A stretch of DNA of 62,476 nucleotides from Alphaproteobacteria bacterium (GCA_031550205.1 JAVBOV010000040.1:1-62476); one strand, 5' to 3'. Shown: positions 16,089-33,021, numbered from the stretch's first letter. Notes: generated by a model not told the origin, from the sequence alone. Numbers and translations are program-made.

Positions 16089-17057
16089 CTATGTCACCTC
16101 GGTTACGGCTCTTAGGTTGCCGTCGCGGTTGATTTGGACTACTTTTAATTTGCGGCGCATTTCCTCAATGGTCTTTTTTCTATCTATGGTGGGATATGAG
16201 TGCAGAATGCGGTTGAAAAAGGCTTCATAAGCCGCTTCAGAGCTTTCGGCGTGGATGGTGGCCAGGCAGTTGTCGTGGCCGGAGCCCATCAACTCCCAAA
16301 TGGCGCCGGCGTTGCCGGTGGAGATTTCGCCGCCGATGATGGCATCAGGAGTGAAGCGCACCACCAAATCGATTATTTTGCTGTAACTTAACTGATTGGT
16401 TTGCTCGGTACGAGAAAGCACAATGTGCACGCGGTTTTTGTGCGGCACAATTAACTCGCGGGTGTCTTCAATGGTTAAAATTCTTTTGTTGATGTCTAAA
16501 ATCTTCAGCAGGTTGTTCAAAAACGTGGTCTTGCCGGTCGAGGTGGCGCCGGAAACCAAGATGTGGTCGCCGCGTTTAATGCTCAACAGCAGTCTCTCAT
16601 ATGGGTCGGTGGGGTCTTTGATGTCTTTTAGGGGGTTGATGCTGTGCAGTTTATCACCTTGTTTTAAGCCATAATCGCCAAGGCCGAAGGCAACATCGTC
16701 GGCGTGGACACGGATGGTTAAGGCCACGCCGCCGGTTAAGTCTTCCTGGTCATACATTACGTTTTTTCCGGCAATGGCTGAAAAACGGTGTTCTCCGGGG
16801 ATGGTGGCATATACTACCGGTGTTCCGGCTACCGGGTCAAAAGGAAGTTCATAGGTGTTGGCGATGATATATAGCAAATCTACCAGATATTCTTTGGTGA
16901 GTTTTTCATCCTTATACATGACCCAAGGGTAAGCGCGCTTGCCTCTTAAGCGCAGCCAGATTTGGCCGGCGCGGTTGATGGCAACCTCTTCAATGTTGTC
17001 TTGGTTGTACCAATAAGACAAGGGTCTTAAAACTGATTCCAGAACATTAAAATTCAT
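16089..17057 (-). CDS. virB11: VirB11-family T4SS ATPase
   Basis: 322 aa. Walker A GATSTGKTT, Asp box LTIEDTRE, Walker B-like AIIGGEISTG, His box LATIHAES. Last gene of the virB string. Confidence 0.9.
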   Translation of the reverse strand: MNFNVLESVLRPLSYWYNQDNIEEVAINRAGQIWLRLRGKRAYPWVMYKDEKLTKEYLVDLLYIIANTYELPFDPVAGTPVVYATIPGEHRFSAIAGKNVMYDQEDLTGGVALTIRVHADDVAFGLGDYGLKQGDKLHSINPLKDIKDPTDPYERLLLSIKRGDHILVSGATSTGKTTFLNNLLKILDINKRILTIEDTRELIVPHKNRVHIVLSRTEQTNQLSYSKIIDLVVRFTPDAIIGGEISTGNAGAIWELMGSGHDNCLATIHAESSEAAYEAFFNRILHSYPTIDRKKTIEEMRRKLKVVQINRDGNLRAVTEVT

Positions 17058-17073: not shown

Positions 17074-20000
17074 TTAAAACAATTGAGGAACGCTGCCAGA
17101 TGAACCGGAAGAACCGCCAGAGGTGCCGGCTGAAGGAGCCGGACCCGAAGGAACAGTGCCTGAACTTGACGGCGCAACAGAGAACGACGGAGGAGGCGGA
17201 GGAGGCGTGCCGCCGGCACCTGACCGCTGCTGAGCTCTTTGCTGGGCGCGCTGCTGGTTCATTTGGTTGTCATCAATCAGTTGGTTGGTTCTGACCGGGT
17301 TGATGTTAGGGTCTTCAGATTCATATACAACTGATGAACCGGAATCTACGCCGCCAGAACCGCCGCCGCCGGAGTTTTCTCTTTTTCTCTTGTTGCGCAG
17401 AGCGTCGGTTTCAGAGGCAACTTCCTTGTCATCTATCAAAATATTGCGCTTTCTCATGTCTGCATCGCCGGCTTCTTTATCACGCTCAAAGTTTCTGAGC
17501 CACAAATCGACATTGGGATAAACAATGATGCGGGTGCCGGCCGGAACGTAAGTCAGCGGCTTGATGTTGGTTTTATCTTGCAGAATTTGCTCAAACACCT
17601 GGTTCATTTCATTTAAGAAATTTTGACGGGCGTCGTTGGCGGCCTGTTGTTTCGGAGATTCAATTTCCGTGCCGGAATCATCTTTCGGCGCCATCATATA
17701 TGAGGTGTAACTGGTTAAGGCTGTGGTCATAATCGGCAGAGTATATTTTTTGAACAACTGCTGGTCCAGATATCCAAGGGCGCCGCCGCGGCCCTGAGCG
17801 TCGCCGGTAATGCCCTGAAAGACAAACAACGAGCCGTCAGGACGAATTAAGCGCTCCCAAGAAATCTGCACTTTGGCAGAGTGAGAAGTGGCCTCGGTGG
17901 AAGCGGTTAAGCCGCCCAAAGTTCCAATTAAACGGCTGCCGGCCGGAATGAGAATATTGCGACCCTCTTCGGCATAAACGTTTCTCTCAACAAAAGCGGT
18001 TATCGGCGTCGGGTTGTTGCTGTCGATTGAACGGGCGATTACGGCCGGAATCGGCTTATCGGCAAAAATCATCTCGCTCATGTCAACACGCCAGGAGGAT
18101 ATGACCTTGGTAATGCCCTGTTCAGCCCAGTCTTTCTGCATGCCGTCAAAACTTTCTTTTCTGACATTGCTGCTGAGTTTGCCGACGGAAATGTTTTTGC
18201 GACGCTCTTCCTGAGCGGCAGCAAGAGCTTCGGCGCGCTGGGAATCGTATCTTTCGCCAGGGCCGAAACCACCGCCAGGGCCAAGGTTGCCGCCGGGACC
18301 GGTGCCGGTGCCATAAGCGCCGCCGCGGCCGAATGTTCCGGCAGGAATAAACATATCTCCGCCGCCGGATTTTTGACTCTCTTCAATGCCGATTAAGGCG
18401 CCGTCATCGTTCATTATTAAACCATCGGGCATTTTTTTGCCAAGATATTGTCCAGACTTATCAAAGACGCGGCCGTCTTCAAAGATATCTCCGAGATATT
18501 CTCCATCAGGAGTTAAGGCTATGCCGAAAGATTTTCCGGCTTTTTCTTTTATATCTTTGTCAACCACGCCGACTTCGGGAAGTTTTTTGTCTCTGGCTTT
18601 GGGCGCTTCAACCTTTTCATACCAGTCCACGCCTATGCCGCCGATGATGTCGCCGTTGGCAGAAACCACTGTGCCGTCGGCCTGCAGAAGGCCTATAATC
18701 TCTCCGTCTTCGTTAACAACCGAATTGTTGGCGCCGACATAGCCTATGACATCGCCCTTTTCATCATAAACTTTTTGGCGGTCTAAAGTTAAATTGTAAT
18801 ATTGCAAAGGTTTGGCCGCCGCCACAACATTGCCGTTGGCGTCGCTGATAATGCCCTCTTTATCAACTTCGCCAAGGGGCTGATTATCAAGGTTTAAGAG
18901 AACTCCGTTTAAGCCGAGCTCACCAACGATGATGCCGGCATCATCGCGAATATAATAATCGCGATTGCCGCGGCCGAGCAGCGCAAAACTTTTATCCACC
19001 AAGAAACCGCGGTCAAGCCTGCCCATGTTTTTGCCGTCAAAACTCAGAATGCTGCCGTCTTTGGCTATGTAAGCAATTGCATCTCCACCTTGGTTGTAAA
19101 TGTAAAAGTCATATAAGGCGTAGCCGATTTTTTGATTATCAGAGACAATATAACCATCAAAGCGAAGACTGCCGACGTCTTCTCCCTTATCATTAAGCAC
19201 GCGGCCTTCTTCGGTGACGCGGCCCAGATATGCATTGTTATTATCAAAAGCAACGCCGTATTGAAGCGCTGCGCCCAAAGGCATGCCGGTTTTGGAGTTG
19301 ACACCCAAACCGGGCTGGAGATAGCCGATGGATTCATTGTCTTCATCAACAACCGAACCGTCGGATAAAATTTTGCCGATGATTTCTCCGTTAAAATTTA
19401 TTACCGGAGATTGTCTGACCGCAGCGCCAATGACAACCCCGGAAGAGTTTACAAGCTGCTCGCGCTTGTTGAGACAGCCCAGATCTTCTCCGCTATAGTT
19501 GATGATTTTGCCGACGGCATTGGCCGCGCCTAAAACATTGCCGTTATAATCAACCACATTGGCATATGAAACTCCGTAGCCGACGATTGTGCCTAAGTCA
19601 GAGACTGCCTGATTATTTTGCAACGGTCTGCCTTGAGAAACGTTTTTATAATTTCTGATGCTGCCGTCCGGGCTTAAGACGCCCAAAAATTCGCAGCCGC
19701 CGTTTAGAAAAACTTTTTTCTCCGCAAGCCTGCCAATAAGCTCATTGTTGTTGCTTAAAACCTGATTTTTATCTGCAATTTTGCCGACTAAAGACTGGTT
19801 GGCATCAATGATGGAAGCGTCAGAATCTTCAGTCCCGACAAAGTTGCCGAGAACATTTATGGCTAGCGAAGGAAAATGCGCAATATCTAAGGTGCCGAGA
19901 AGGCGGTTTCTTTCATCTAAAACCGCACCAGACTGGGTTATTTTGCCTGGCAGTGCAACGCCTTCTTTGTTCAGCAAAGCGCCATTGGGAGAGAGATAGG

Positions 20001-21336
20001 CGACTTCCGCTCCGGCAGAATTGCGCACCGCACCCAGAGGCAAAAGAGCGCCGGAAAGACTGCCGTCGGCAGAAAAAGCATAATCCAGCGGAGAGGCGCT
20101 GATATCTTCAAACGAGGCATTAATGCCGATTATGCCTAAAATGTTATCGGCATTGTTAACAACCAATTGATTATCAGACATTGAAGAACCGATAATGCGA
20201 CCTTTGCTGTAGGCAACGTTTCTTTTCATATATCCCGAAATCGGGCCGTCTAACAAAACCACACCGCCGCTTTTGAGGGCGTGAGCGAACAATTTTCCCC
20301 TGTAATCAAAGACCGGTCCGGAGTTTATGATTTGGCCGATTATTTTTCCGGAGGCGTCAACTATGTTTCCGTTAACCCCCAAGCGGCCGACAATATCTCT
20401 GGCTTTGGCGATCTCACCGTTGGGCATGATGCGGCCCAAATATTTGCCGTCGATGTCCGTTGCCGCGGCGGAGATGTCCACCGAATATCCGATGAAATTT
20501 CCGTTCAGGTCAGATATTCTGCCGTCGGGACGAATGCGTCCGATAATTTTATTTTTATCGACAACCTCTCCGTTATAGGTGACAAAACCGAGATATTTTC
20601 CCTGGTAATCAAAAGCATAACCGGAACTGACAATTTTGCCGATGATGGAGCCGGCTTCATTATAAGCGTAGCCGTTGGCCTTGATAAAGCCTATGCGCTC
20701 CGCATTAAAGTCCGTTACATTGCCGCCGGGAGAAACGCTGCCGATAAAATCTCCCTGCAGCGATACAACCATTTTGGAGGAGATTAAGCGGCCGTCTAAA
20801 ACATATTCAGAGCCGATTTTGCGATAAGCGTAACCATCCATGGAAATGAAACCGATTTTTTGCCCGGCAAGATTGGTGTAGCTGCCGTCGCCGGTTAAGC
20901 GGCCCACGGTTTTTCCTTCATCGGAATAAACCAAGCCGGGAAACAAAACCGAGCCGATAACGTTAAAATAATCGTCAACCACAAGACCATTCGGCAGAAC
21001 CCGGCCGGCAACCTTGCCGGAAGCCAAACGAACAGAACCGTCGTTACTGACTTTGCCAATGAAGGCGTTATCGGTGCCGACGACCACACCCTGAGGGATT
21101 ACTCCGCCAAGAAGCTCCCCTTTAGAGCCAATGATTAAGCTGTCGGCGGTAACATTGCCAACCAATTGATTGTCGAAACTGACAACTTTACCGTCCGGAA
21201 TTACCTTGCCCAAAAGGTCTCCGTTAAAATCAACCGCCGTAATTTCCTCCGCCAAAGCCGGAGCCGGGGCAACAAAGCAAAGCAAAGCCAAACTCAGGGC
21301 TTTGATAAGGAAACTATGTGCTTTATAAAAATTCAA
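17074..21336 (-). CDS. virB10: Repeat-expanded VirB10/TrbI-family T4SS core protein (1420 aa)
   Basis: N-terminal hydrophobic segment ALSLALLCFVAPAPALA. From about aa 30 to 1000, degenerate 17-18-aa repeats (KVIPDGKVVSFDNQLVGN, RVLPNGLVVDDYFNVIGS, IRPDGRISDLNGNFIGY). Gly-rich hinge. TrbI/VirB10 core at about 17500..18100 (MIFADKPIPAVIARSID, ILIPAGSRLIG, ISWERLIRPDG, YVPAGTRIIVYPNVDL). G/S/Q/P-rich tail of about 130 aa. Confidence 0.85.
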   Translation of the reverse strand: MNFYKAHSFLIKALSLALLCFVAPAPALAEEITAVDFNGDLLGKVIPDGKVVSFDNQLVGNVTADSLIIGSKGELLGGVIPQGVVVGTDNAFIGKVSNDGSVRLASGKVAGRVLPNGLVVDDYFNVIGSVLFPGLVYSDEGKTVGRLTGDGSYTNLAGQKIGFISMDGYAYRKIGSEYVLDGRLISSKMVVSLQGDFIGSVSPGGNVTDFNAERIGFIKANGYAYNEAGSIIGKIVSSGYAFDYQGKYLGFVTYNGEVVDKNKIIGRIRPDGRISDLNGNFIGYSVDISAAATDIDGKYLGRIMPNGEIAKARDIVGRLGVNGNIVDASGKIIGQIINSGPVFDYRGKLFAHALKSGGVVLLDGPISGYMKRNVAYSKGRIIGSSMSDNQLVVNNADNILGIIGINASFEDISASPLDYAFSADGSLSGALLPLGAVRNSAGAEVAYLSPNGALLNKEGVALPGKITQSGAVLDERNRLLGTLDIAHFPSLAINVLGNFVGTEDSDASIIDANQSLVGKIADKNQVLSNNNELIGRLAEKKVFLNGGCEFLGVLSPDGSIRNYKNVSQGRPLQNNQAVSDLGTIVGYGVSYANVVDYNGNVLGAANAVGKIINYSGEDLGCLNKREQLVNSSGVVIGAAVRQSPVINFNGEIIGKILSDGSVVDEDNESIGYLQPGLGVNSKTGMPLGAALQYGVAFDNNNAYLGRVTEEGRVLNDKGEDVGSLRFDGYIVSDNQKIGYALYDFYIYNQGGDAIAYIAKDGSILSFDGKNMGRLDRGFLVDKSFALLGRGNRDYYIRDDAGIIVGELGLNGVLLNLDNQPLGEVDKEGIISDANGNVVAAAKPLQYYNLTLDRQKVYDEKGDVIGYVGANNSVVNEDGEIIGLLQADGTVVSANGDIIGGIGVDWYEKVEAPKARDKKLPEVGVVDKDIKEKAGKSFGIALTPDGEYLGDIFEDGRVFDKSGQYLGKKMPDGLIMNDDGALIGIEESQKSGGGDMFIPAGTFGRGGAYGTGTGPGGNLGPGGGFGPGERYDSQRAEALAAAQEERRKNISVGKLSSNVRKESFDGMQKDWAEQGITKVISSWRVDMSEMIFADKPIPAVIARSIDSNNPTPITAFVERNVYAEEGRNILIPAGSRLIGTLGGLTASTEATSHSAKVQISWERLIRPDGSLFVFQGITGDAQGRGGALGYLDQQLFKKYTLPIMTTALTSYTSYMMAPKDDSGTEIESPKQQAANDARQNFLNEMNQVFEQILQDKTNIKPLTYVPAGTRIIVYPNVDLWLRNFERDKEAGDADMRKRNILIDDKEVASETDALRNKRKRENSGGGGSGGVDSGSSVVYESEDPNINPVRTNQLIDDNQMNQQRAQQRAQQRSGAGGTPPPPPPSFSVAPSSSGTVPSGPAPSAGTSGGSSGSSGSVPQLF

Positions 21337-21339
21337 AAT

Positions 21340-24300
21340 TTAGTTCCTTCTGTTTTTTGCCACTTCCTGCAAAGCATAGCCCGCAACTTTTTTATCTAAG
21401 TTAATGAACGAGCCGTTGCTTTTGATGTACCCGATATCTTGGCCGGAAGGGCTGATGACCCTGGCGGCGTGGTTTAATCTGCCGATGTATTGACCTTCGC
21501 TGCCCAAAACCGCAGTGCCGATTTTATAAACACGACCCAAGATATTTTCAGCATCGTCCACAGCCAAATCTCCGGTAAGGACGCGGCCGAAGACATCTTT
21601 ATCTTTGCCAGAGATTTTACCACCAAAATCAACGTAGCCTACAACTTTGTCAGAGTTATCAATAACTATATCTCCGCTTAAAACTTCACCCATAAGTTTG
21701 CCGGCAGTGCTTAAAACATTGCCGTCGGACAGAACTTTTCCGACAACAATATTGCCGGCATCTATCACCTGGCCGCCGGGTTTTACAGCAGCAACAACAT
21801 TGCCGGAATAATCAACCACTGCACCGCGCTTCAAAAGGCTTAAGTTCTTGTCGGTGGAGCCGCCGGGCAAAATTGCCGAAATACTGTCGTTTTTGAGGTC
21901 TAAAATATCTCCCAGTGCGTTCATGCGGGCTTTATAATTGCCCAAGATGTCCACCAAAATTCCTTCTTTTATAATCTCACCAATGACATTGCCGCGGTTA
22001 TCCAAGACTTTGCCGTCGGATGTTGTTTTGCCCTGCTGTTTGCCGTCCAAATCTATTACTCTGCCGTCAAAAAGACTATGACCGAGATATGAGCCGTCAT
22101 AACCGATGGCAACGCCTTTAGGAGCTATGGCGCCGCGATATTCTCCACGGTTGTCGATGAACATTCCCTTGGAATCTATTTGGCCGAAGACCTCTCCAAA
22201 GCGACTGATGACCGAAGAACCGTAAGAAACCCTGCCGATGCTGCTGCCGAAGAAATCCACAACTTCTCCTTTTTGAGAAGGAATGCCTAAGATGCCGCCA
22301 TAAAAGTTCAGACCATCTCCGGATATTTTGCCGATTGACAAGCCTTTGTCATTATAAACTTCTCCGTCGGGAAACAGGCGCCCCATTATATTGCCGGCAG
22401 CGTTGACAATTGTCGTTGCAGGATTTAATACCACGCCGATGATATTATTGTTATCATCCGCCACCAGATTGTTGGCAAACAATTTGGCATCTTTTTGGCC
22501 AGATATGGAAACTTTGCCGTTTTCTCCGACCACATTTAAGAAGTTGCCGTCCATATCATAGGCATATATTGCCTCCTGGTAATGCCCAAGATATCCGCCG
22601 CTGCGGTCAAAGACATCGCCGTAAATGCCGACGCAGCCGACCGGCAGCATGGCTCCGGAAATTACCAAGTTATCTTCGCTGATTTTGCCCAGATAATCTC
22701 CGTCGTAAGAAACCGCAACGCCTTTTTTGGCAACAGCGCCGATGATATTGCCTTTTTCATCTAAAACCGAGCCGTCGGGGTTTAAACAGCCGAGATAGTT
22801 GTTGGCGGTGCCTCTGACCACGCCGTCGGTGCCGGCTTCGCCCAGATAACGGCAGCTGTCGTCAAAAACCTTGCCGGTCTTAACCACTTCACCAACATAG
22901 GTGCTGGTGTTGTCAAGGACTGTGCCGTCGGGCATAATTTTTAAGTTTGTATCGGCGTTGGCTTTTCTGATTTTGCCGTCTGTTTCAAGATAGCCCAGGT
23001 TTTTACAGCCATATCCAACCACCAGGCCGCCAGGCTGCAAACGAGCAATTACTTTTGAACCTGAAACATCCTTGACCAAACCGGAGGAAAGAATGCGGCC
23101 AATCACCTGCTTTTCCGAATTTTCGATGCTGCCGTTGTTAGCTATGACGCCAAGCACTTCTCCCTTAGGAGTGATGGGGATTAAGGTGGTGTCAACCAGC
23201 GAGCCTATTTTTTTGCGGATATTGCTGATGACATTGCCATCCTTGTCCACAAAGCCGATCTGTACGCCGTCGGCGTTAAACACTTTACCGGAAGCATCGG
23301 CATAACCGATTAATCTGCCGTCTTTATCGTAAACCAAGCTAACCAGTTCTCCGGCCTTGCCGATGATGTTGCCATTGGCGTCCACCAAAGTTCCATCTTC
23401 AAGCATGCGGCCGATAATGTTGCCGTTGAAGTCAACCACGTTGCCGTTTTCATCAATATAACCGATGACGTTGCCGTCTTTATCATATGCCAGGCGGCGT
23501 TCCGCGCCCGGAGCACCTAAAACTTCATCAACCACAACGTTGCCGTCTTCGTTAACAAAACCGACGGTTTTGCCGTTAGAGTCAACCACCGCTCCGTTGG
23601 GCATTACAACTCCAAGCATATTGCCGTTGTCGTCTATGGCCACGCGGCCCGGCTTGGTAACAGAACCGATGGGGTTGCCCTTTAAGTCCACCACCGTGCC
23701 GTCGGAGAGCATGCGTCCGATGATATTGCCGTTGGCATCAACCACAGTGCCGTCGGGCAGAACGCGGCCAATGATGCTGCCGTCTTTGTCATAAACATAA
23801 CCGGCATCAACAGCGCGGCCGATGACATTGCCGCCATTATCTACTACCGTGCCGTCAGGCAAAACACGGCCGATGATATTGCCGTCCTTATCAACCACCG
23901 TGCCGTCGGGGTTGACATAACCTATAACATTGCCAAATTCATCATAAACCAAACGGCGATTGTCGGCCACACCGATGATGTTGCCCTTGTCGTCCACCAC
24001 CATATCCGAGGCATTAACTCTGCCGATTAAGTTTCCGCCGGGGTCTTTGACATAGCCCTCTTCATCGGCCAGACCGATGACTCCTCCGTCGGGGCCGACG
24101 GCTCTTCTCAAGCTTTGAGTGTCTTTGGGCTCAGCACCGACCGGAGCTGAGGCTTCACAATAGTTGCAGTCTTCACGGCGGATGGCGTTGCCTTCAACCG
24201 GAATTTTTTCAGATTTGGCATTGGCTTTGGTGAGGTTGGACTCATGCCAAGAGACAATGAAGTTATTTTGAACATTGCCGGCAATAACCGGAGCCCAAGA

Positions 24301-24756
24301 CATGGTAATGTGGCAGGTTTGCTCTCCTCTCAGTTCTTTGCCGGTGCAGCTGTCTTCAAAAACAAAGCCGTCGGCCGGAGGGTCTGCCAGTTCAACCGAA
24401 ACAACCCGAATGGTCTTTTTGCCGTTGGTGCCGACGGTTAAAACATTTTTGGCATCGGTGCCTAAGACCACCTGCCCCATGGGAACGGGGTTCGGAGTTG
24501 TGGTAATCGGTTTTTCAGCTTCTTCAACGGTTGTAAATTCAACGTTATCCGTAAGCGCGTTTTGGCGGCCGATGTTTAAAGCGTCATCATTATCGGTAAA
24601 AACCGGCTCTTGATAATCATCGGTATTGCCGCCGCTGGAAATCAACAGATAAAGGCCCAAAAGAAAGATTATAAGAGAAGTAATACCAACCGCCAAGATA
24701 ATGCGGTTGGTTTTCTTCACATAGGTTTCGGAATGTGTTAAGTTTTCTTTGCTCAT
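21340..24756 (-). CDS. Bitopic 1138-aa protein made mostly of the same 17-residue repeat as VirB10; no canonical VirB counterpart
   Basis: One TM (IILAVGITSLIIFLLGLYLLI). Possible Ig/ASH-like module (VVLGTDAKNVLTVGTNGKKTIRVVSVELADPPADGFVFEDSCTGKELRGEQTCHITMSWAPV). Then about 900 aa of repeats such as VLPDGTVVDNGGNVIGR, VLPDGTVVDANGNIIGR and MLEDGTLVDANGNIIGK. Its start overlaps the virB9 stop by 4 nt and its stop lies 4 nt before virB10. Confidence 0.75.
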   Translation of the reverse strand: MSKENLTHSETYVKKTNRIILAVGITSLIIFLLGLYLLISSGGNTDDYQEPVFTDNDDALNIGRQNALTDNVEFTTVEEAEKPITTTPNPVPMGQVVLGTDAKNVLTVGTNGKKTIRVVSVELADPPADGFVFEDSCTGKELRGEQTCHITMSWAPVIAGNVQNNFIVSWHESNLTKANAKSEKIPVEGNAIRREDCNYCEASAPVGAEPKDTQSLRRAVGPDGGVIGLADEEGYVKDPGGNLIGRVNASDMVVDDKGNIIGVADNRRLVYDEFGNVIGYVNPDGTVVDKDGNIIGRVLPDGTVVDNGGNVIGRAVDAGYVYDKDGSIIGRVLPDGTVVDANGNIIGRMLSDGTVVDLKGNPIGSVTKPGRVAIDDNGNMLGVVMPNGAVVDSNGKTVGFVNEDGNVVVDEVLGAPGAERRLAYDKDGNVIGYIDENGNVVDFNGNIIGRMLEDGTLVDANGNIIGKAGELVSLVYDKDGRLIGYADASGKVFNADGVQIGFVDKDGNVISNIRKKIGSLVDTTLIPITPKGEVLGVIANNGSIENSEKQVIGRILSSGLVKDVSGSKVIARLQPGGLVVGYGCKNLGYLETDGKIRKANADTNLKIMPDGTVLDNTSTYVGEVVKTGKVFDDSCRYLGEAGTDGVVRGTANNYLGCLNPDGSVLDEKGNIIGAVAKKGVAVSYDGDYLGKISEDNLVISGAMLPVGCVGIYGDVFDRSGGYLGHYQEAIYAYDMDGNFLNVVGENGKVSISGQKDAKLFANNLVADDNNNIIGVVLNPATTIVNAAGNIMGRLFPDGEVYNDKGLSIGKISGDGLNFYGGILGIPSQKGEVVDFFGSSIGRVSYGSSVISRFGEVFGQIDSKGMFIDNRGEYRGAIAPKGVAIGYDGSYLGHSLFDGRVIDLDGKQQGKTTSDGKVLDNRGNVIGEIIKEGILVDILGNYKARMNALGDILDLKNDSISAILPGGSTDKNLSLLKRGAVVDYSGNVVAAVKPGGQVIDAGNIVVGKVLSDGNVLSTAGKLMGEVLSGDIVIDNSDKVVGYVDFGGKISGKDKDVFGRVLTGDLAVDDAENILGRVYKIGTAVLGSEGQYIGRLNHAARVISPSGQDIGYIKSNGSFINLDKKVAGYALQEVAKNRRN

Positions 24757-26378
24757 TGCGTCCTAACTACACTACAAAAAATTCCGTTGCGGCCCAAGCG
24801 AGAGCAGATGTTGTCTCCGGTTTCAAGGCTGTCTACCGGACCAACTCTTAAGTGGAACAGTTCTTTGCCCTGACCGTCGGCCGGAGTATCCACCGAGAAG
24901 AAAGGATCATATACATTCAGTTCCTGATATTTTCCGGAAAGATTATCCCAAAGAGATTCCAATTTTTCAACATCGGCATCCGTGCCGAGTTCTATGGATA
25001 TATTGGCCGATCCGCCTTCAGTAAACCCGGAGCCGTAGCCATAACCGTTTAACGCCCTTTGAGCATCAGGATTATATCTGTTGGTGTTTTTGATGTTGGT
25101 CATTTTGGAATAGTCAAAACCCGCATCAGTGCCGGAGTGTCCGGAGACATAACCGCCGGGAGCGGCAGTGCCGGAACCGGTTGAAACCTTGGCCGGAGGA
25201 ATATGACTTACGCCGCCCTGCTCATAGCCCGCCGATAAATCTCGGCCGGCGCCACGGTCGGCTCTATCAAAGCCGGAACCTTCGCGGTAACCCTGATTGT
25301 AAGGGACATCGCCGTTGGGAAGAGGCGGAGGCACATCCCATGACGGAGACATGGTTTTGCCGGCATAAGAGATGTTTTCAAGACCGACATCATCCGAGCG
25401 GCGCATTTTAAGACAAATAATGCGCTTGCCGTTTTTCATTACCATATCACCGACGCCCTCAACAATAATCAGACGATTATTGGGACCCTTGGTGCGGAAA
25501 CCGACCGGAACTTCAATTCTTTCAACAATCAATGTAACAATCGGACGCTGAGTCATGTTTAAGGCTTTTTCACCCAAATCGATATAGGTGAAAATATCAT
25601 CTCTCCAGACACGTTCCGGAGCAATAATTACGTCGTCGGGGTTTGGAATGTAAACCTCTATATCAAACCTGAATTTGGTCGGATCCATGGGAATGGTTTT
25701 CAGCCAGTCGTTTTTTTGGAAGCGTCTGGTGTAAGTGGAATCTACCGATTTAGGAGAATTAAAATTTTGCGGAGAGCCGCCTCCGGCACGGCTTGCTCTG
25801 CCGCTGCCGCCGGAAGCTTTGTCTTCATCCTGCGGAGCATCTATGACCTCAATATCGATAATTGAATTGGTCAGTCTTTCAGTGTTAACGCCTTCGCTTT
25901 TGGCATAAAAAACATAACGGTTGCCGGAGCGTCCGAAAACGATGATGTTGGTGTCAACGCCGACATTGGAGCCTTTGCGGGGATATAACAAAAGAGTGTT
26001 GGGACCTGAAATCTGACCGTCAAAAGTTGCGTTATCACCGATAAAGATATCTTCAATGAGCTCCCAGTCGGGAAAATTGATTAAGGTTATCATGCCTTCA
26101 CGCAGACGAACCGGCAGAACCAAATCCGGAGACCAATAATATTTGGAATATGCCGGCTTGGTTTGACCTTCTCCCAAATTTTGCAGCGGGTCAAGCCAGG
26201 CGCTTTGAACCATGCCCAGAGAATTGAACCCGGCGTAGCCCAAATTCATCGGCGTATATTGACCTTGGGTTTGATCGGCATTTTGATCAAGGCTGCCCAT
26301 GGTTGCCTGAGAATATGCTCTGGAGCTTATTACCAAAAGCAGAAGAAGAGAAAATATTTTTAACAACCTTAAAGTCAT
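24753..26378 (-). CDS. virB9: VirB9/CagX-family T4SS outer-membrane core protein with a C-terminal SPOR-like domain
   Basis: 541 aa. Signal peptide LLLLLVISSRAYS. VirB9-like N-domain (LPVRLREGMITLINFPDWELIEDIFIGDNATFDG..TNIIVFGRSGNRYVFYAKS). G/S-rich linker. Last ~85 aa (about 24756..25010) read ISIELGTDADVEKLESLWDNLSGKYQEL..KELFHLRVGPVDSLETGDNICSRLGRNGIFCSVV, a SPOR pattern. Confidence 0.8.
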   Translation of the reverse strand: MTLRLLKIFSLLLLLVISSRAYSQATMGSLDQNADQTQGQYTPMNLGYAGFNSLGMVQSAWLDPLQNLGEGQTKPAYSKYYWSPDLVLPVRLREGMITLINFPDWELIEDIFIGDNATFDGQISGPNTLLLYPRKGSNVGVDTNIIVFGRSGNRYVFYAKSEGVNTERLTNSIIDIEVIDAPQDEDKASGGSGRASRAGGGSPQNFNSPKSVDSTYTRRFQKNDWLKTIPMDPTKFRFDIEVYIPNPDDVIIAPERVWRDDIFTYIDLGEKALNMTQRPIVTLIVERIEVPVGFRTKGPNNRLIIVEGVGDMVMKNGKRIICLKMRRSDDVGLENISYAGKTMSPSWDVPPPLPNGDVPYNQGYREGSGFDRADRGAGRDLSAGYEQGGVSHIPPAKVSTGSGTAAPGGYVSGHSGTDAGFDYSKMTNIKNTNRYNPDAQRALNGYGYGSGFTEGGSANISIELGTDADVEKLESLWDNLSGKYQELNVYDPFFSVDTPADGQGKELFHLRVGPVDSLETGDNICSRLGRNGIFCSVVRTQ

Positions 26379-26391
26379 AATCTAATGCACC

Positions 26392-27111
26392 TTATTTTAT
26401 CTTGTTATGAGTTAAAGAATATTGAGCTACGGTAAAACCTATGGGGTTTTTCAGCCTTTCGCCGTATTTTACGGTTTTAGACTGGTAAGCAATGCGCATG
26501 GAAGCGGTCCAATAATTGACCTCGGGAGCAGTGGAGGAGGGAAACATGTCCTGAGTTTCATATTCAACCTGCCACAAGCCGCGGCCAAGCTCATTAACCG
26601 TGAGGATACGGACGTTTCTGACCAGACTTCTGGCTCTGATTATGTCTAAAGCCTTGTAAGCGGTTCTATCCAAAAACTCTTGATAAACCGAGCTTGAAGA
26701 CATTTCCTGAATGGGGCCGCCGGGCATCCAGCGGGCCTGCATCTCTGAGATGTCCTGATCAAAAGAGCTTCTGAGCAAAACATATTCTCTGACAAAAACC
26801 TCGGTAATGGCTTTTTCATCAATGATATTGCCGCGAACCGGCTTAATGGAATATACCTGCTCCTGCTTGTTTTGAAAGGTGAGCAGAAACGGCTCTAAGC
26901 GGTATAGCGGAACAACCTGAGTAATGGCAAGCAGCAAAACCACGTTGCAGCAAAGACTGATGGCGGTGATAATGGCGAATGCTCTGGCTGTCCAAAGATA
27001 TCTTTTTTCAGCAAGATTGGCCACAAAAGCATCTGACGCACTCCGAGAAGCGGCACTGCTGCCGGTAAGAAGCTTTTGCCCGATATTTGCCTGTCTGATT
27101 TGTTTTGCCAT
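26392..27111 (-). CDS. virB8: VirB8-family T4SS protein, copy 1
   Basis: 239 aa. N-terminal TM (FAIITAISLCCNVVLLLAI), a periplasmic domain, and the conserved C-terminal NPxG motif (RLKNPIGFTVAQYS). Confidence 0.85.
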   Translation of the reverse strand: MAKQIRQANIGQKLLTGSSAASRSASDAFVANLAEKRYLWTARAFAIITAISLCCNVVLLLAITQVVPLYRLEPFLLTFQNKQEQVYSIKPVRGNIIDEKAITEVFVREYVLLRSSFDQDISEMQARWMPGGPIQEMSSSSVYQEFLDRTAYKALDIIRARSLVRNVRILTVNELGRGLWQVEYETQDMFPSSTAPEVNYWTASMRIAYQSKTVKYGERLKNPIGFTVAQYSLTHNKIK

Positions 27112-27454: not shown

Positions 27455-28228
27455 TTATCTTAGTTCTACTTCGGTTTGAGAGTAGCGGACAACGGTGAAG
27501 CCCAGAGGGTTGATTAAGCGAAGGCCGACAAAGCTTCTTTCCGGAATGAAGTAAGCGGTTATGGAAGCGGTCCAATAACGGGTTTTCAAGACCAGAGCCT
27601 TGGTTCTTTGGTTGCGGGCGGCTTCCGACAAATCATAGGTTTTAAAATCAACCTTCCAGATGGCGCTTTTTTCACCGCCCACTCTGCCGGCGGAAATGAT
27701 TTCCACCTCCCTGACCAGCTTGGCGTCAAACATGGCTTGCCAAGTGCTTTTGCGGGTAGAGTCAAATTGCGAGAAAACATCGGGCGCGGATAAAAAATTT
27801 ACCATGCCGCCGGGATACCAGCGCGTGCGCATTTCTATCTGGTCGTTAACAATGGTGTTCCTTATAATTACATATTGTTTGATGAACGTTTCCATCATCT
27901 GGTTCATTGAGGCCTGATTTTCAAGCAGAACATTATAAGATATCGGGTCGTAGCGGACAATGCCGTCAGAAGAGTCCTGGCTGATGATTAAAAACGGTTC
28001 AACGCTGACCTTGGGAGCAAGCTTGAACAGCATTAATGAAAAAGATAAAAAGGCAGATAAAGAGACAACCGCCAGAAAGATGAAAAATCTGGAAAGCCAA
28101 ACATAATAGTGCAGCTTGGAGCTTTCAATCTCACGCTCTTTTTCATCAATAAAATCAATTTTCTTGCCGCTGCCATAGGTCAGCGACAACATTTTGATTC
28201 CGGCCAATATTTTATCTTTAGAGCTCAT
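27455..28228 (-). CDS. virB8: VirB8-family T4SS protein, copy 2
   Basis: 257 aa. TM (FFIFLAVVSLSAFLSFSLMLF). NPxG motif RLINPLGFTVVRYS. Clearly a paralog of 26392..27111. Confidence 0.85.
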   Translation of the reverse strand: MSSKDKILAGIKMLSLTYGSGKKIDFIDEKEREIESSKLHYYVWLSRFFIFLAVVSLSAFLSFSLMLFKLAPKVSVEPFLIISQDSSDGIVRYDPISYNVLLENQASMNQMMETFIKQYVIIRNTIVNDQIEMRTRWYPGGMVNFLSAPDVFSQFDSTRKSTWQAMFDAKLVREVEIISAGRVGGEKSAIWKVDFKTYDLSEAARNQRTKALVLKTRYWTASITAYFIPERSFVGLRLINPLGFTVVRYSQTEVELR

Positions 28229-28242
28229 TAAATTTTATTTTC

Positions 28243-31200
28243 CTAGTAGGCTGCACAGTAAGGTTTTTCAAACTTTTTAATTTGCTTTTCAAGTTCCTCT
28301 TCCGCTTTCTTGCGCTGAGCACCGGCAACTTCGCGGTTGACTCTTTCAGAAACAATTTCTTCATCAAGTTCGGAGCCGGAAGAGACGTTGGTACTTAAGG
28401 TTATAAGTTCGTCCTTGTCTTTTTGCAGGGCAAGAAAAATATTCTGCAGCAGGGCAACTCTTTCCAAAACCAGCTCTCCGCCGCCGTCTCCGGCTTCCTT
28501 AAGCACAGACGAGGCCAGAGATACTTTTTCGTTTTTCTTGCTTTCAAGCTGTTTTTTTATCTTGTCATAATCTTCAGCCTTGGCAAGGTCAAAATTACGG
28601 TCGATAGTAACACCCACATTGGCCAGAGCCTCTACCAGAGTATCTTTAATGTCTTCAATATTAATGGCAAGTTCGTCGCGAGCCTGTTTCAAATCTCGCT
28701 CGCGGTCAACAAAGTTTAAGAAATTGCCGATTTGATTGCGGTCAAACTTGGAGCGGCGGAGAAGAGCGTCTTCCGTTGTTTTCTTATATGAAGTTTCCTG
28801 CTTGGAAAGTTCTCCCGCAACATATTCAAGACGGGCAAAAATATCAACCACGTTCTTTCTCAGCTTTATGCCATTGATGCCATAGTCTAAAAATACGCCA
28901 AGCTCGCTGGTGTTGGCGGCCAAATCTCCGCCCTTATATTCTGAATTTTTGAACAATATTTTATAATCTATGCCTGCGGACGCGTCTGCGCGGCCGGATG
29001 TTTCGTCTTCAGGGTCAAAAACATTATAATTGTGCGTTTGCTGAATTTTGCCGTTTACAACTACCGGCGCAATAAACGGTTCACCGACCACAATGTTTTG
29101 ACAATCAGTATAGGCGTTGGAAACAACCGAGTTGGTCACCAGATAATTTTTGGTTAAAGGATTGGCGATAACCGTATGTTTGTTGTTGTTGCAAGGATAG
29201 GTGCCGCCGTCTAAGAAGCTCATTTCCTCACCGCCCAGGGTCAGAAGTTTTTTGAGGTCAACCTCTTGCTCAACAAAAGCGTCTTTGGCCAGAACTCTCT
29301 TCCAGATTTCAGGCATTTTGCCGCCGATATCCAAGAAATATTCCGAAATGGTATAACCGTCTTCAAAACCATATTTAGCTTGAATGATGTTGCCGTAATC
29401 ATTTTCATCAAAGTGGAAGACCTCTCTTAACGGAGGGAGATAATCTGACGGGGCTGATTTCGGCGCTTTAAGGTCTCTGGCCTTGCCGCCGTAGCCGATG
29501 TAATATTCAAAATCTGCCTCCAAGCAGGCGTCTTTGGCGCAGGCAACGGAAGTTAAGAACTGCTGATATACCAAAGAAACAGACTGAACAACAGCCGGAG
29601 CCGCCGACAAACCGCTTAAGCCTTTAATGCCGGTAAGCGGCAGATTTTGCAAATCAGTCATCAGTTTTTGATGTCTTTGCAGCACTTTGGCGTGCCCGCT
29701 TGAAACATAGATATCGTCTCCCATGGCAAGGATATCCGCTTTTGTCTGTTCAATAAGCTCCTGAGCTCTTTTCTGAGCCTCGGTGGTGAGCATTTCAGCT
29801 TCCGAAATGTAAGAGGTTATTTGGCTGCTTATGCCGGCAAATGAGCCTAAGTCAAGGTTGGCCATGGCCAGCATTTTCTCATTTCCTTTTTGTGTAACGG
29901 CAGAAGAAGCGGATAATAATCCCTGATATTTTTCAACTTCCTGTTCATAAACTTTTTTGGCGGCGGCAAGGCCCTGCTCGTAGTCTTTAATGAGAGGCAG
30001 GCGGTCTTTAACGGTGCGGCTTAACAGGTCTTTGGCATATCCTCTTGCTCTTAACATCTGCTCGGCATATGAAGCCTCAACTTCCTTATGGCTTTTAATA
30101 TATTCTTTTTTAACGGCCTCAATATCCTTCTCGGTCTTTTGAATGGCCTCTTCAATGAGCTTTACTTTGGCTTTTTCAGCAGCAACCAATTCTCTGATTT
30201 GAGCAACGTTTTTGCCGGCAAAAGCCGCCACGGCAAGGCTGATTTCTTTTTGCAGCTTGGATTCCGTTAAGAAAGCGCTTTCTTCAGGGGTGATAAACTC
30301 ACGGGAATATTCTTCGGTTTGATAAGTGGTAACAACGGTCTCTTCTTCTTTTTGAGGAGCATCTTTTTGTATTTCCTGAGTTTGATATTCCACAATCGTC
30401 GGCTGCGCAGGGGCGGTTTTTATCGGTGCTTCAACCGCTATTTCCACGATTTTTTCTTCAGTAACGGTGAGTTCAGAGGGGCCTTTTTCTTCGGTGGTAA
30501 TCTCAAAAACCTTATCGGCCGGAACCCCTTGGGCAAAGGCCAATGTTTCAAGATAAGAATGTTTTTCAGGCTCCGCATTTTCAGGCTGCTGAATCGGGGT
30601 CAGACTATCCGGCTGTTCTTCAATGAAATCTTCAAGGCTTTGAACCGGCGCAGCATTTTCAATAACCAGTTCCTCCGTGCTGATTTTAATGTCTCCGGGG
30701 GTAAGTTCCTGTTTAATTTCAGTGGTGGTGGTTTGGTAAATTTTCGGTTTTTCAGGGGCTGTTTCCGCCGGAGCAATAACCTCACGATGAGTGGTGGTAA
30801 CAACGGTTTCAGCGCCATCTATTTTTGTTTCAACAACAGTTTCTTTTTCAAAATCCACAACGTTTTTAACAATCACCGCTCTGTCTTCAACTTCGCCCTG
30901 ATATTCATTAATATCCTTGATTTGAGACGCCATGTCCTGAGCTTCAAGAGTTGATTCCTGAATGCGGCCTTCAAGTTCGTTAATTTTTATGTTGTATTCA
31001 TTTATAAGCTTGGCGATGCCGTCTAACTGCTGATTTAGGTTTTTCTTGCGGGCATTAAGCGGGGTGAGCTTATTGTTCATGGCAGATTTTGCCTGCGCAA
31101 AGGCCTGGTCTCTTGAGCCTTTGCCAAGATTAAAGCTGCCTTCGGCATCGGCCAAGTCTTTGGCGGCGGCATCCTGTTCGACTTTGAGGGTTTTCTGCAA

Positions 31201-33021
31201 ATTATCATCAAAACGTCTCAACTCGTCTTGGCCGATTTTTTCCTGCATTTCCGCTTCATAAATTTCTTTTAAGCGCTTTTCTGCGGCCAGAGATTCCTGA
31301 TATGCTTTTTCATTTTTATTCTTCTTGTATTGGGCGGTTTTTTGAACCTGGTCATAATATTTATCAAATAATATTTCTTTTTGTTTGGCATATTCGGCAG
31401 GAGCCAGATTAGCCAAAGATTTGGAACGGTCTTCCGAACCAAGGCCCAAACTTTCGCGTTTTTCGGCAATAAAGGCATCGGCCATAGATGCAACGATTTT
31501 AATTGCGCCGGCTTTTAAATCAGCCCTTGCAATATAGTCTTTAATATTTTCATATTTGCCTTCAATATATTGATTATAAAAACTTTTCTGGTCGTTCCAG
31601 ATGGGATATTTTTTCTTCAAGCCGCCCCACTGAGGCGAATTTGAATATTGGTCTTGAGCCAGAAAGCTGAAGGCTTCGGCGCCGATTTCCCAAGAAAGTA
31701 AGTTAGTTTGGCGGTCTATTTGGCCAATCTCATCTTCCGAGCTGGGGCTCAGCAAACCGCCGGTGTCTATTTTGACATTGGAATTGGCGGCATATTCGTT
31801 GCCGGTGTCGGCTTTGATAATTCCGGTATAATCAACCTCGGCCAGGTCTTGTGCGGAAACAGAGTTGGAAAGTTCGGCTTTGGCCGTATCATAAGCCTTA
31901 ATTGCCCAGCCGGAGATGCCGCCGCGCAGCTGGTGGGCGCTTACCTGAGCGTTTAAATCTCTGCCGGCCCAGACCTTGTTCGGGTCGGAATAATATTGTC
32001 CAAGATGGCGGATGGCGCACCCGCTTGAAAGCTGCAGGGCTTTAATGGAGGTTTCATGCATTCTGACATAGCGGTCATATGAAACAAAGGAATCTTGAAA
32101 AGAAGGCATGGACTGGAGCAGATTATGAATTTCTATGGCTTCCATGGCCTGATTATAAACGGGGTCAAGCTTGGCCAGCCTTTCAAGCTCATCGCGGTTG
32201 GCGGCATATGGAGAATCAAGACCGGAATCCGGAGCCTCAACAAATTCTACAATTCTTTTGGCAAAGGCAACGGTTTCCGACGAGCGGTAACTGCCGGTCT
32301 TTTGGGCGGATGGAGCCTCTTCGGGAAGAATATTCATCATCGCTTTGGCTGCTTCATATTGGGCTTTCAAAGCTTCAAATTCTTCATAAACCTTGAGCAG
32401 CTGTTCATATGAGACCTCGGCATTATATGCGTTGGTCCAGACGCCGTTGACGTTGTCTCCCTGCTCAGCGCCCTGCTCCGTGTCTCTAAAGCCGTCATTT
32501 AACTTGTTTTCAATTCCTTTGAGCCGTTCTTCAAGTTTTCGGGAAGAAACATAAACCTCCATTAAGGTATCTTGATAAAACTCACGACGCTTGGCGGCAT
32601 ATGCGGCCTGCTCTTCGGCCGTGGAGCCTGGATATTGCATGAAGAGTTCATATATGCCGTTTTTAACCGAATTATAATCTTGATTATCTATGTCTTTGCA
32701 TTCCTCTATGGTACGGGTGCCGGGTACCGGTTTTTCAAGCTCTTGGCCTAAGGCAGACTGCTCGGAAAATTCCGGAAGATAGCCTTCTTTCAAGGCTTTT
32801 TGAGCACTTAAGGCATCTTGTTTTATCTCGTTGACTTTGGATTGAACTTTGCGTTTTTTGGCAGTTACATCGTTTATTTTTTTCAAAACGTTATTCGGAA
32901 TATCCGTGGTGATATCAAACGGCATTGGCGGAAACATCAGGGTTTGAGCGCTTTGCGGAGCAAGCACTGAAAACAGAGCGGCAGCCGAGAGAGATAAAAA
33001 TATGGATTTAAGTTTTCTCAT
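28243..33021 (-). CDS. Giant secreted coiled-coil protein (1592 aa), unknown function, inside the T4SS operon
   Basis: Signal peptide SLSAAALFSVLAPQSAQT. Long heptad-like K/E/A/Q-rich stretches. A central E/T/V/P-rich region. A Cys-containing globular region near the C-terminus. Shares the ETLAFAQGVPA motif with 34798..36018. 4-nt overlap with the upstream gene. Confidence 0.6.
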   Translation of the reverse strand: MRKLKSIFLSLSAAALFSVLAPQSAQTLMFPPMPFDITTDIPNNVLKKINDVTAKKRKVQSKVNEIKQDALSAQKALKEGYLPEFSEQSALGQELEKPVPGTRTIEECKDIDNQDYNSVKNGIYELFMQYPGSTAEEQAAYAAKRREFYQDTLMEVYVSSRKLEERLKGIENKLNDGFRDTEQGAEQGDNVNGVWTNAYNAEVSYEQLLKVYEEFEALKAQYEAAKAMMNILPEEAPSAQKTGSYRSSETVAFAKRIVEFVEAPDSGLDSPYAANRDELERLAKLDPVYNQAMEAIEIHNLLQSMPSFQDSFVSYDRYVRMHETSIKALQLSSGCAIRHLGQYYSDPNKVWAGRDLNAQVSAHQLRGGISGWAIKAYDTAKAELSNSVSAQDLAEVDYTGIIKADTGNEYAANSNVKIDTGGLLSPSSEDEIGQIDRQTNLLSWEIGAEAFSFLAQDQYSNSPQWGGLKKKYPIWNDQKSFYNQYIEGKYENIKDYIARADLKAGAIKIVASMADAFIAEKRESLGLGSEDRSKSLANLAPAEYAKQKEILFDKYYDQVQKTAQYKKNKNEKAYQESLAAEKRLKEIYEAEMQEKIGQDELRRFDDNLQKTLKVEQDAAAKDLADAEGSFNLGKGSRDQAFAQAKSAMNNKLTPLNARKKNLNQQLDGIAKLINEYNIKINELEGRIQESTLEAQDMASQIKDINEYQGEVEDRAVIVKNVVDFEKETVVETKIDGAETVVTTTHREVIAPAETAPEKPKIYQTTTTEIKQELTPGDIKISTEELVIENAAPVQSLEDFIEEQPDSLTPIQQPENAEPEKHSYLETLAFAQGVPADKVFEITTEEKGPSELTVTEEKIVEIAVEAPIKTAPAQPTIVEYQTQEIQKDAPQKEEETVVTTYQTEEYSREFITPEESAFLTESKLQKEISLAVAAFAGKNVAQIRELVAAEKAKVKLIEEAIQKTEKDIEAVKKEYIKSHKEVEASYAEQMLRARGYAKDLLSRTVKDRLPLIKDYEQGLAAAKKVYEQEVEKYQGLLSASSAVTQKGNEKMLAMANLDLGSFAGISSQITSYISEAEMLTTEAQKRAQELIEQTKADILAMGDDIYVSSGHAKVLQRHQKLMTDLQNLPLTGIKGLSGLSAAPAVVQSVSLVYQQFLTSVACAKDACLEADFEYYIGYGGKARDLKAPKSAPSDYLPPLREVFHFDENDYGNIIQAKYGFEDGYTISEYFLDIGGKMPEIWKRVLAKDAFVEQEVDLKKLLTLGGEEMSFLDGGTYPCNNNKHTVIANPLTKNYLVTNSVVSNAYTDCQNIVVGEPFIAPVVVNGKIQQTHNYNVFDPEDETSGRADASAGIDYKILFKNSEYKGGDLAANTSELGVFLDYGINGIKLRKNVVDIFARLEYVAGELSKQETSYKKTTEDALLRRSKFDRNQIGNFLNFVDRERDLKQARDELAINIEDIKDTLVEALANVGVTIDRNFDLAKAEDYDKIKKQLESKKNEKVSLASSVLKEAGDGGGELVLERVALLQNIFLALQKDKDELITLSTNVSSGSELDEEIVSERVNREVAGAQRKKAEEELEKQIKKFEKPYCAAY

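Follow-up and report, generated by a model that had tools for sequence, protein, structure and literature searches.

The window analysed here, a stretch of 62,476 nucleotides, comes from an uncultured gut alphaproteobacterium and carries a chromosomal type IV secretion system (T4SS) operon on its minus strand, on which all features below lie unless (+) is given. Two adjacent genes of this operon consist largely of one 17-residue repeat. The upstream one, which we call X (21340-24756; 1138 amino acids, aa), encodes, in this order, a cytoplasmic tail, a transmembrane helix, an Ig-like domain and about 50 β-hairpins; the downstream one, B10 (17074-21336; 1420 aa), encodes a predicted signal peptide, about 52 hairpins, a Gly-rich linker, a TrbI domain and a Pro/Ser-rich tail. 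Among T4SS subunits, VirB10 is regarded as the only one to span both membranes and to pass conformational changes driven by ATP on to the pore in the outer membrane. We propose that X and B10 are the two halves of one such VirB10, whose gene would have been divided in the middle of a giant hairpin array.

The two genes and their repeat arrays

The C-terminal part of B10 places it in the VirB10 family. Its TrbI/VirB10 β-barrel domain (aa 1086-1282; 17491-18081) matches Pfam PF03743 at 119.6 bits (cutoff 35; E 1.9e-34) over profile positions 2-188 of 188, NCBIfam ComB10/VirB10 models match at E 1e-30 and 1e-27, under those models' own curated cut-offs, and the closest solved relatives of the domain are H. 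pylori ComB10 (2bhv, E 8.7e-19), Xanthomonas VirB10 (6gyb) and R388 TrwE (7o3j). The protein itself is a 100% match to P0001, and its gene sits where VirB10 genes sit, between virB9 and virB11 in the T4SS operon. Two other features of the family are missing from the polypeptide that bears the barrel: the cytoplasmic tail and the single transmembrane anchor are both found on X, and a hairpin array stands in place of the proline-rich periplasmic linker. Since the only Pro-rich run of B10, PPPPPP, sits in its tail after the barrel, the Pro-rich segment is C-terminal to the barrel, not N-terminal. This low-complexity tail (17077-17490; 138 aa, with QQRAQQRAQQR, PPPPPP and Ser/Gly-rich stretches) has a conserved end, SVPQLF in the window, and the terminal ..[LMI]F is kept even in distant giant relatives in which the gene is unsplit. 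Between array and barrel lies the Gly-rich linker, GMF.PAGTFG.GGAYGTG.G.GGNLGPGGGFGPGERYD (aa 986-1040; 18217-18381), whose columns are nearly invariant in orthologue alignments and whose predicted local distance difference test score (pLDDT) is below 50.

At its N-terminus B10 carries a predicted Sec signal peptide, (M)NFYKAHSFLIKALSLALLCFVAPAPALA/EE, read from a TTG start (21250-21336) by sequence inspection. The N-terminus in the window is signal-peptide-like (…LALLCFVAPAPALA/EE), B10 orthologues have an equivalent hydrophobic N-terminus followed by AxA, and a hydrophobic run lies within the first 50 aa of 179 of the 184 split-type B10 proteins. X begins differently, with an N-terminal tail of the motif S.(E/D).Y.KK(T/S)NR and a transmembrane helix (aa 1-40; 24637-24756), the latter appearing as a helix at aa 9-40 in the AlphaFold2 (AF2) model and as a Kyte-Doolittle maximum of 2.66 at aa 19-37. 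This topology, a short cytoplasmic tail and one transmembrane helix, is that of the canonical VirB10 N-terminus. There follows an Ig-like domain of the ASH/PapD/MSP type (about aa 91-172; 24241-24486), for which Foldseek finds domains of HYDIN, MOSPD2 and CEP192 (probability 0.94-0.99) and for which the profiles of Pfam ASH (E 4.7e-4) and NCBIfam choice_anch_D (E 3.7e-5) both remain under threshold.

The remainder of X (aa 217-1128; 21373-24108) and most of B10 (aa 31-985; 18382-21246) are built from the 17-residue unit, with the consensus [RK]-[VI]-L-P-D-G-x-V-V-D-x-[DN]-G-N-[IL]-I-G derived from 30 clean units, all 30 of which have G6 and G17. The BLOSUM62 autocorrelation peaks at lag 17 when compared with shuffles (z = 21.9 for X aa 219-1092 and 14.2 for VirB10 aa 33-983), with harmonics at 34 and 51, and no lag-17 signal appears in X aa 1-218 or in the VirB10 C-terminus. 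An iterated hidden Markov model recognises 39 + 33 units. Pfam assigns both arrays to Bflower_2 (PF21785; E 4.1e-65 for X and 2.7e-53 for B10; 179 and 217 bits for the two proteins, cutoff 38) and to Bflower (PF21784; 66.8 and 71.3 bits, cutoff 25), and DUF3659 (PF12396) also exceeds its threshold (E 5.1e-26 for X). Bflower_2 and Bflower share Pfam clan CL0395 with Tubby. The β-flower fold was defined in 2023 from AlphaFold models as a shallow barrel of 4-6 hairpin "petals" with [DNEQ]xxG at their tips, with neither a known function nor a solved structure (Durairaj et al. 2023, PMC10584680). The tip motif recurs in our unit as D10-x-[DN]-G13, along with D5-G6, between the predicted strands, and NCBI names the homologues "5-fold beta-flower protein" or "TrbI/VirB10 family protein". 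By these profile matches, the repeat belongs to an already defined sequence family, β-flower/DUF3659, and is not a new one. RHS_repeat (44.4 bits, cutoff 22) and the YD_repeat model TIGR01643 (45.9 bits, cutoff 15.8) also score over their cutoffs for X (no such score is reported for B10), as sums of weak matches in which no single stretch is significant, and the DPxG[LWIV] motif of the Rhs DPxGL autoprotease is absent from X and B10. In orthologues, the arrays align in register with invariant glycines across proteins that are 40-60% identical. The arrays cannot be put down to faulty assembly, since the units in the window are only 60-77% identical in DNA and dozens of independent assemblies supply the in-register orthologues.

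We modelled both arrays with AF2, using input alignments of 31 and 36 homologues. Full-length X was predicted with a mean pLDDT of 79.2 (80-91 in the repeat region) and a predicted template modelling score (pTM) of 0.68, and VirB10 aa 30-1010 (981 residues) with a mean pLDDT of 86.0 and a pTM of 0.76. Throughout the models, strands of 5 residues alternate with strands of 3-4 residues at a spacing of 9/8 residues, and the strand counts of 99 and 103 give about 50 hairpins for X and about 52 for B10. A pTM of about 0.7 across some 1,000 residues means that the model has a fixed global arrangement and is not a set of beads on a string; the high pTM thus suggests that each array may be one rigid body. 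A super-period of 4, 5 or 6 units (68, 85 or 102 residues), which would point to closed flowers, is not seen in the sequence. When the VirB10 array was compared with the PDB by Foldseek, the top matches were all Rhs/YD shells (8qjd_B at E 4.6e-22, Tse15, 7pq5, teneurins and TcB-TcC), with TM-scores of only 0.06-0.11 and root-mean-square deviations of about 30 Å. Because of these low TM-scores, the likeness lies in the local hairpin sheet and not in the overall shape. Foldseek of X against the PDB gave matches only through the Ig-like domain, a sequence search of X against the PDB returned nothing, and Foldseek of B10 against viral models returned only tail-fibre matches of low probability.

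These results bear out most of what the original prediction, made from this DNA alone, had read at 18340-24110: one repeat of 17-18 residues running over two adjacent genes at some fifty units each, one of the genes being a VirB10. The unit consensus that it sketched and the β-hairpin nature that it supposed, with strand pairs throughout the AF2 models, also hold up. It was right to point to DUF3659, to see a resemblance to YD/Rhs repeats (by profile and by local sheet, at TM-scores near 0.1) and to set this repeat, with its period of 17 and its own consensus, apart from those of CagY and DotG.

Unsplit relatives and the X/B10 junction

What X is emerges from proteins in which the same parts form a single chain. 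With X aa 1-215 as a phmmer query against 1.84 billion representative proteins, the N-terminal module of X was found at the head of P0285 (2201 aa), P0287 (2152), P0290 (2350), P0327 (2363), P0352 (1930), P0353 (2287), P0374 (2266) and P0173 (1498). In unsplit proteins with this head, hairpins of the same kind run on for 1,500-1,800 aa up to a TrbI domain, and the C-terminal tail closes with …[LMI]F; the N-terminal tail and transmembrane helix of X are conserved in the giants. Single-chain relatives in gut metagenome-assembled genomes (MAGs) are mostly 1,930-2,609 aa long, the short ones measuring 1,498-1,507 aa (P0168, P0173). P0327, used in turn as a query, has at least 120 clusters among the matches listed, nearly all of 2,060-2,609 aa and with a TrbI domain; all come from MAGs of uncultured Alphaproteobacteria and are named by NCBI "TrbI/VirB10 family protein" or "DUF3659 domain-containing protein". 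Pairwise BLAST against each giant shows that X covers it from aa 1 to about 1100 and that the window VirB10 covers it from about aa 900 to the end. Because of the shared N-terminal module and this end-to-end tiling, X and VirB10 together appear as a giant VirB10 divided mid-array, and X, as judged from these relatives, is the N-terminal half of a split VirB10 and not an independent protein. The "separate 1138-aa protein" of the original prediction therefore stands as a separate gene, not as a separate entity.

The unsplit VirB10 genes also lie between virB9 and virB11 (L087, L088). One of these loci, L088, could be taken for a 276-aa X-like gene followed by a 1906-aa VirB10; we rejected this candidate, as the break is a 10-N scaffold gap and the ungapped P0285 is one open reading frame (ORF) of 2201 aa. 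The other locus encodes a shorter protein: P0168 (L087:10001-14524), of about 1,500 aa, has an X-type N-terminus, one array of about 50 hairpins and a TrbI domain; its locus has only one VirB8 and lacks an X gene. P0173 (1498 aa) is a short unsplit VirB10 of the same type. Such proteins may have arisen by re-fusion, through a deletion between two arrays.

At the junction between the two genes (21334-21357), X ends in AAC AGA AGG AAC TAA, codons that hold a Shine-Dalgarno sequence, and B10 starts with TTG 8 nt later. The same arrangement recurs among relatives: the codons of a conserved X end, …AKNRRN, include the VirB10 Shine-Dalgarno sequence, and the start codon follows 5-8 nt past the stop. 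The Shine-Dalgarno sequence inside the last codons of X and the B10 start just past its stop imply that X and B10 are translationally coupled. In the window the two genes share one frame with a single TAA between them, so that low-level read-through would recreate a fused giant VirB10. We considered whether the shared frame reflects a general pseudogene or read-through mechanism and rejected this: in most relatives the frames of X and VirB10 differ, and the Shine-Dalgarno sequence, start codon and signal peptide are found in every one.

When GTDB was scanned with each species represented by a single genome, a relative turned up in 343 genomes. The best 80 of these 343 are all gut or rumen MAGs (human, mouse, deer, cattle, chicken), many of them labelled Alphaproteobacteria or, wrongly, Azospirillum. 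Split ORFs were present in all 79 related loci with sufficient upstream DNA, 13 of them in the same frame with one stop and the rest in different frames. The gene order VirB8, 62-aa ORF, VirB8, VirB9, X, VirB10, VirB11 recurs in relatives, and at least 70 species-level genomes have kept the split together with this order. A rough neighbour-joining tree built on the TrbI domain places the 13 genuine split forms left after dereplication in one bipartition.

The rest of the operon is that of a T4SS. Upstream of X, and recognised by profile matches, are a VirB9/CagX homologue of 541 aa (24753-26378) and two VirB8 paralogues (26392-27111 and 27455-28228) in the same order as in relatives; VirB4 (36080-38512) and a VirB2-like pilin (41087-41617) lie further upstream, and a VirB11-type ATPase, also matched by profile (16089-17057), follows B10. 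A VirB6/TrbL-like protein (125-1966, +) is encoded apart from the operon. The VirB9/CagX homologue has a borderline C-terminal match to the peptidoglycan-binding SPOR domain (aa 464-539; 21.2 bits, cutoff 21). Several ORFs of the operon are unassigned, and two large ones within it, of 1592 aa (28243-33021) and 717 aa (38910-41063), have no Pfam or NCBIfam match; relatives have ORFs of 1309-1417 aa at the position of the large operon ORFs. Adjoining the T4SS is a type IVb pilus-like cluster (43803-56022, +) with a TcpQ-like protein, a secretin, a PilO-like protein, a T2SSE ATPase, a T2SSF platform protein, a bundlin-like pilin and a second ATPase, and downstream of this cluster lies an ORF with a eukaryotic-type Ser/Thr protein kinase domain (58297-59751, +; Pkinase, E 3.3e-10). 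Scans of the window for tRNA genes and Rfam families were empty.

A proposed collar and its alternatives

Based on our findings, we suggest that the pair encodes one VirB10 whose linker has been replaced by hairpins, whose gene was cut mid-array and whose halves form a periplasmic collar or spacer; we regard this as the probable explanation, if by a modest degree. In this gut Alphaproteobacteria lineage, about 100 17-residue β-flower/DUF3659 hairpins have replaced the flexible proline-rich periplasmic linker of VirB10. In a sub-clade, the gene also appears to have been cut mid-array: X has retained the cytoplasmic tail, the transmembrane anchor, the Ig-like domain and about 50 hairpins, and the downstream gene has gained a predicted Sec signal peptide while retaining about 52 hairpins, the Gly-rich hinge and the outer-membrane TrbI barrel. 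Each array may fold as a rigid β-sheet body in the periplasm, where inner-membrane-anchored X and outer-membrane-anchored VirB10 could associate non-covalently. By analogy with CagY and DotG, a ring of 13-14 copies of X and VirB10 could surround the secretion channel as a large collar or spacer in the periplasm. The array would then be a conserved structural element and not a recombination-driven variable one. That this is a natural split VirB10 working as two polypeptides joined only by two arrays of about 50 hairpins, and forming a new kind of periplasmic collar or tube, we put forward tentatively, as an idea that falls somewhat short of an even chance.

Several points weigh against this proposal. 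The B10 signal peptide is assigned solely from visual inspection and hydrophobicity, and the global shape of the arrays in the models could be a stack of closed flowers, a continuous spiral sheet or a cocoon. No VirD4 coupling protein or T4SS substrate is visible within the window, and all carriers of the repeat-rich VirB10 are uncultured. The short unsplit P0168 (1507 aa) falls inside the bipartition of split forms in the rough TrbI tree, which is compatible with a single split and one re-fusion, or with an error of the tree. The history of the split may accordingly include re-fusion or a route of duplication plus loss.

The latter route leads to another explanation, in which a whole repeat-rich VirB10 was tandemly duplicated and the copies lost complementary domains, leaving X as a paralogue, perhaps with an accessory role of its own such as an inner-membrane scaffold. 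P0168 would fit here, being collinear both with X (aa 11-1083) and with B10 (aa 273-1505) and grouping with the split clade; the arrays of X and B10 also cross-match, and between species X varies in length much more than B10 does. The collinear match is weak evidence, because any repeat array cross-aligns with another. Against duplication, giants of about 2,150-2,360 aa are tiled once, X and then B10, with little overlap, and X and B10 add up to about 2,530 aa, a length comparable to that of the giants and inside the family range of 1,930-2,609 aa. We therefore consider duplication unlikely, and prefer division of a single VirB10.

Another possibility, which we hold to be as improbable as duplication, is that the arrays are strings of closed 4- or 5-fold β-flower barrels that bind lipid or cell wall and tether the T4SS to the membrane or to peptidoglycan. 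The clan that Bflower_2 and Bflower share with Tubby, and the weak SPOR match in the VirB9 of the window, would agree with this idea; the missing super-period of 68, 85 or 102 residues does not, the pTM of 0.68-0.76 over about 1,000 residues speaks against independently moving beads, and no module encloses a C-terminal hydrophobic helix.

The original prediction had suggested that the partly conserved DNA of neighbouring units would permit in-frame recombination and length variation, and a variable domain of the CagY type would follow from it: recombination between units would change array length and so tune T4SS activity or evade host immunity. The DNA of the window lends this no support. Its longest exact direct repeat within 7.7 kb is 16 nt, no more than in codon-shuffled controls (12-17 nt), and Tandem Repeats Finder reports one array, 51 bp x 2.3 at 75% identity. 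We compared four 90%-identity clusters of X orthologues, of 27-186 members each, reading up to 40 per cluster. Among the complete members listed, length is constant to within 3 aa in each cluster (1266, 1581, 1370 and 1266-1269 aa), and odd lengths are terminal truncations or alternative starts. Between species, X ranges over 1,104-1,842 aa, with one of 2,451 aa, and VirB10 only over about 1,314-1,600 aa. Because X is constant within clusters and variable between species, array length appears to change on evolutionary and not on strain time-scales.

An exception, which speaks for recombination as does the range of X lengths between species, is the species of P0040: a 58-aa module near the end of its VirB10 array is present in 2 copies in most assemblies and 3 in others, and one contig has a DNA-identical duplication of 141 aa near the same end. 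Set against it are the repeat length and unit identity given above, the identical X lengths across dozens of assemblies within each cluster, and arrays that are conserved position by position; the VirB10 length classes of 1552/1553 and 1569/1570 aa, which might be read as a 17-aa polymorphism, are alternative start-codon calls, and we discarded them as evidence. Recombination of the arrays as in CagY is thus not supported, and we judge it very unlikely. As a separate observation, in P0040 aa 950-1065 (L001:12848-13195; also L085 and L086), a stretch of 45 aa, or 2.6 units, occurs 2-3 times, with a strain-dependent copy number. Its copies are identical at 43-45 of 45 residues and only 73-87% identical in DNA, and they share 13 of 44 codons, as against 20.1 +/- 3.2 expected from codon usage. 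This pattern points either to very strong purifying selection or to selection that disfavours identical DNA. We also considered codon recoding to avoid recombination as a general property of the arrays and rejected it, as the units of the window share codons above expectation.

Finally, mis-assembled repeats or a giant VirB10 inactivated by a nonsense mutation, to which the shared frame and single stop in the window might point, are effectively refuted by conservation and have a negligible chance of being right: the split is kept in 79 loci, mostly in different frames, the junction has a conserved signal peptide, Shine-Dalgarno sequence and start codon, and the repeats have diverged too far in DNA to lead an assembler astray.

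Significance and comparison with known systems

Neither the repeat family nor the VirB10 family is new, nor is the notion of a VirB10 expanded by repeats, and databases hold hundreds of these proteins under automatic names. Among 8 million papers searched in full text we found no description of a VirB10 with a linker of about 100 β-flower-type hairpins, of its clade-wide conservation in gut Alphaproteobacteria, or of its split into two coupled genes. CagY and DotG show that the middle region of VirB10 can be expanded, but structures do not resolve their repeat domains, and predictions of these domains are poor. Here we describe what would be a third, independent expansion of VirB10, predicted by AF2 with high confidence. 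The one-chain and two-chain forms in related bacteria provide a natural experiment on the importance of covalent continuity: if VirB10 is indeed split, T4SS function would not need that continuity from the inner to the outer membrane, and the β-flower hairpin would be a building block of very long rigid periplasmic structures. Our findings also offer a first functional context for the β-flower/DUF3659 repeat, in a family conserved in widespread uncultured gut Alphaproteobacteria of human, mouse, ruminant and bird. The absence of a cultured carrier limits their interest for the structural biology of T4SSs.

Canonical VirB10 proteins (VirB10, TrwE, TraF, ComB10) have about 380-450 aa, a proline-rich linker and one polypeptide across both membranes. 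Like them, the system described here has a TrbI barrel at the C-terminus and a gene placed between virB9 and virB11, and the N-terminal cytoplasmic tail with a single transmembrane helix is present on X and in the unsplit relatives; the system differs in having about 1,900 aa of hairpins in place of the linker and in its divided polypeptide. H. pylori CagY is likewise an enlarged VirB10 homologue: a repeat-rich region that precedes the TrbI domain, and for which a collar has been proposed, brings it to about 2,000 aa. Its repeats, which are of another sequence family, persist as direct repeats in the DNA and recombine in vivo, whereas the units described here have diverged in DNA and form an array that stays stable within species, in a gene that is split. 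Legionella DotG also combines C-terminal homology to VirB10 with a repeat-rich middle domain of variable unit number. The repeat-rich middle domains of CagY and DotG have been proposed to form a periplasmic collar that is absent from conjugative VirB10 systems, and that of DotG to reach the inner membrane as well (bioRxiv 10.1101/2023.03.22.533729). The DotG unit is 10 aa long, [KR]xAG[FY][STND]xxx[LI], with a low-confidence structure prediction (bioRxiv 10.1101/2023.03.22.533729); our unit is a 17-aa hairpin predicted at a pLDDT of 80-95, with a different consensus.

The other two comparisons concern the repeat itself. With β-flower/DUF3659 proteins (PF21784, PF21785, PF12396) it shares its family, by Pfam thresholds, as well as the [DNEQ]xxG tips and the short antiparallel strand pairs. 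The β-flowers described so far are single closed barrels of about 96 residues and 4-6 hairpins (Durairaj et al. 2023, PMC10584680), unlike the arrays reported here, in which a secretion-system subunit carries some 50 fused hairpins in each protein, or some 100 for one VirB10 equivalent, in a body predicted to be rigid over about 1,000 residues. The Rhs/YD shells of T6SS Rhs effectors, TcB-TcC and teneurins are the best structural matches (Foldseek E 1e-22 to 1e-12) and consist of long hairpin arrays forming one sheet, as the arrays here may do too; RHS_repeat and YD_repeat_2x score over their cutoffs for X. They differ in their period, about 20-21 aa compared with 17 aa here, and in overall shape (TM-score 0.06-0.11), and the arrays of X and B10 come with no DPxGL motif, plug or toxin domain.

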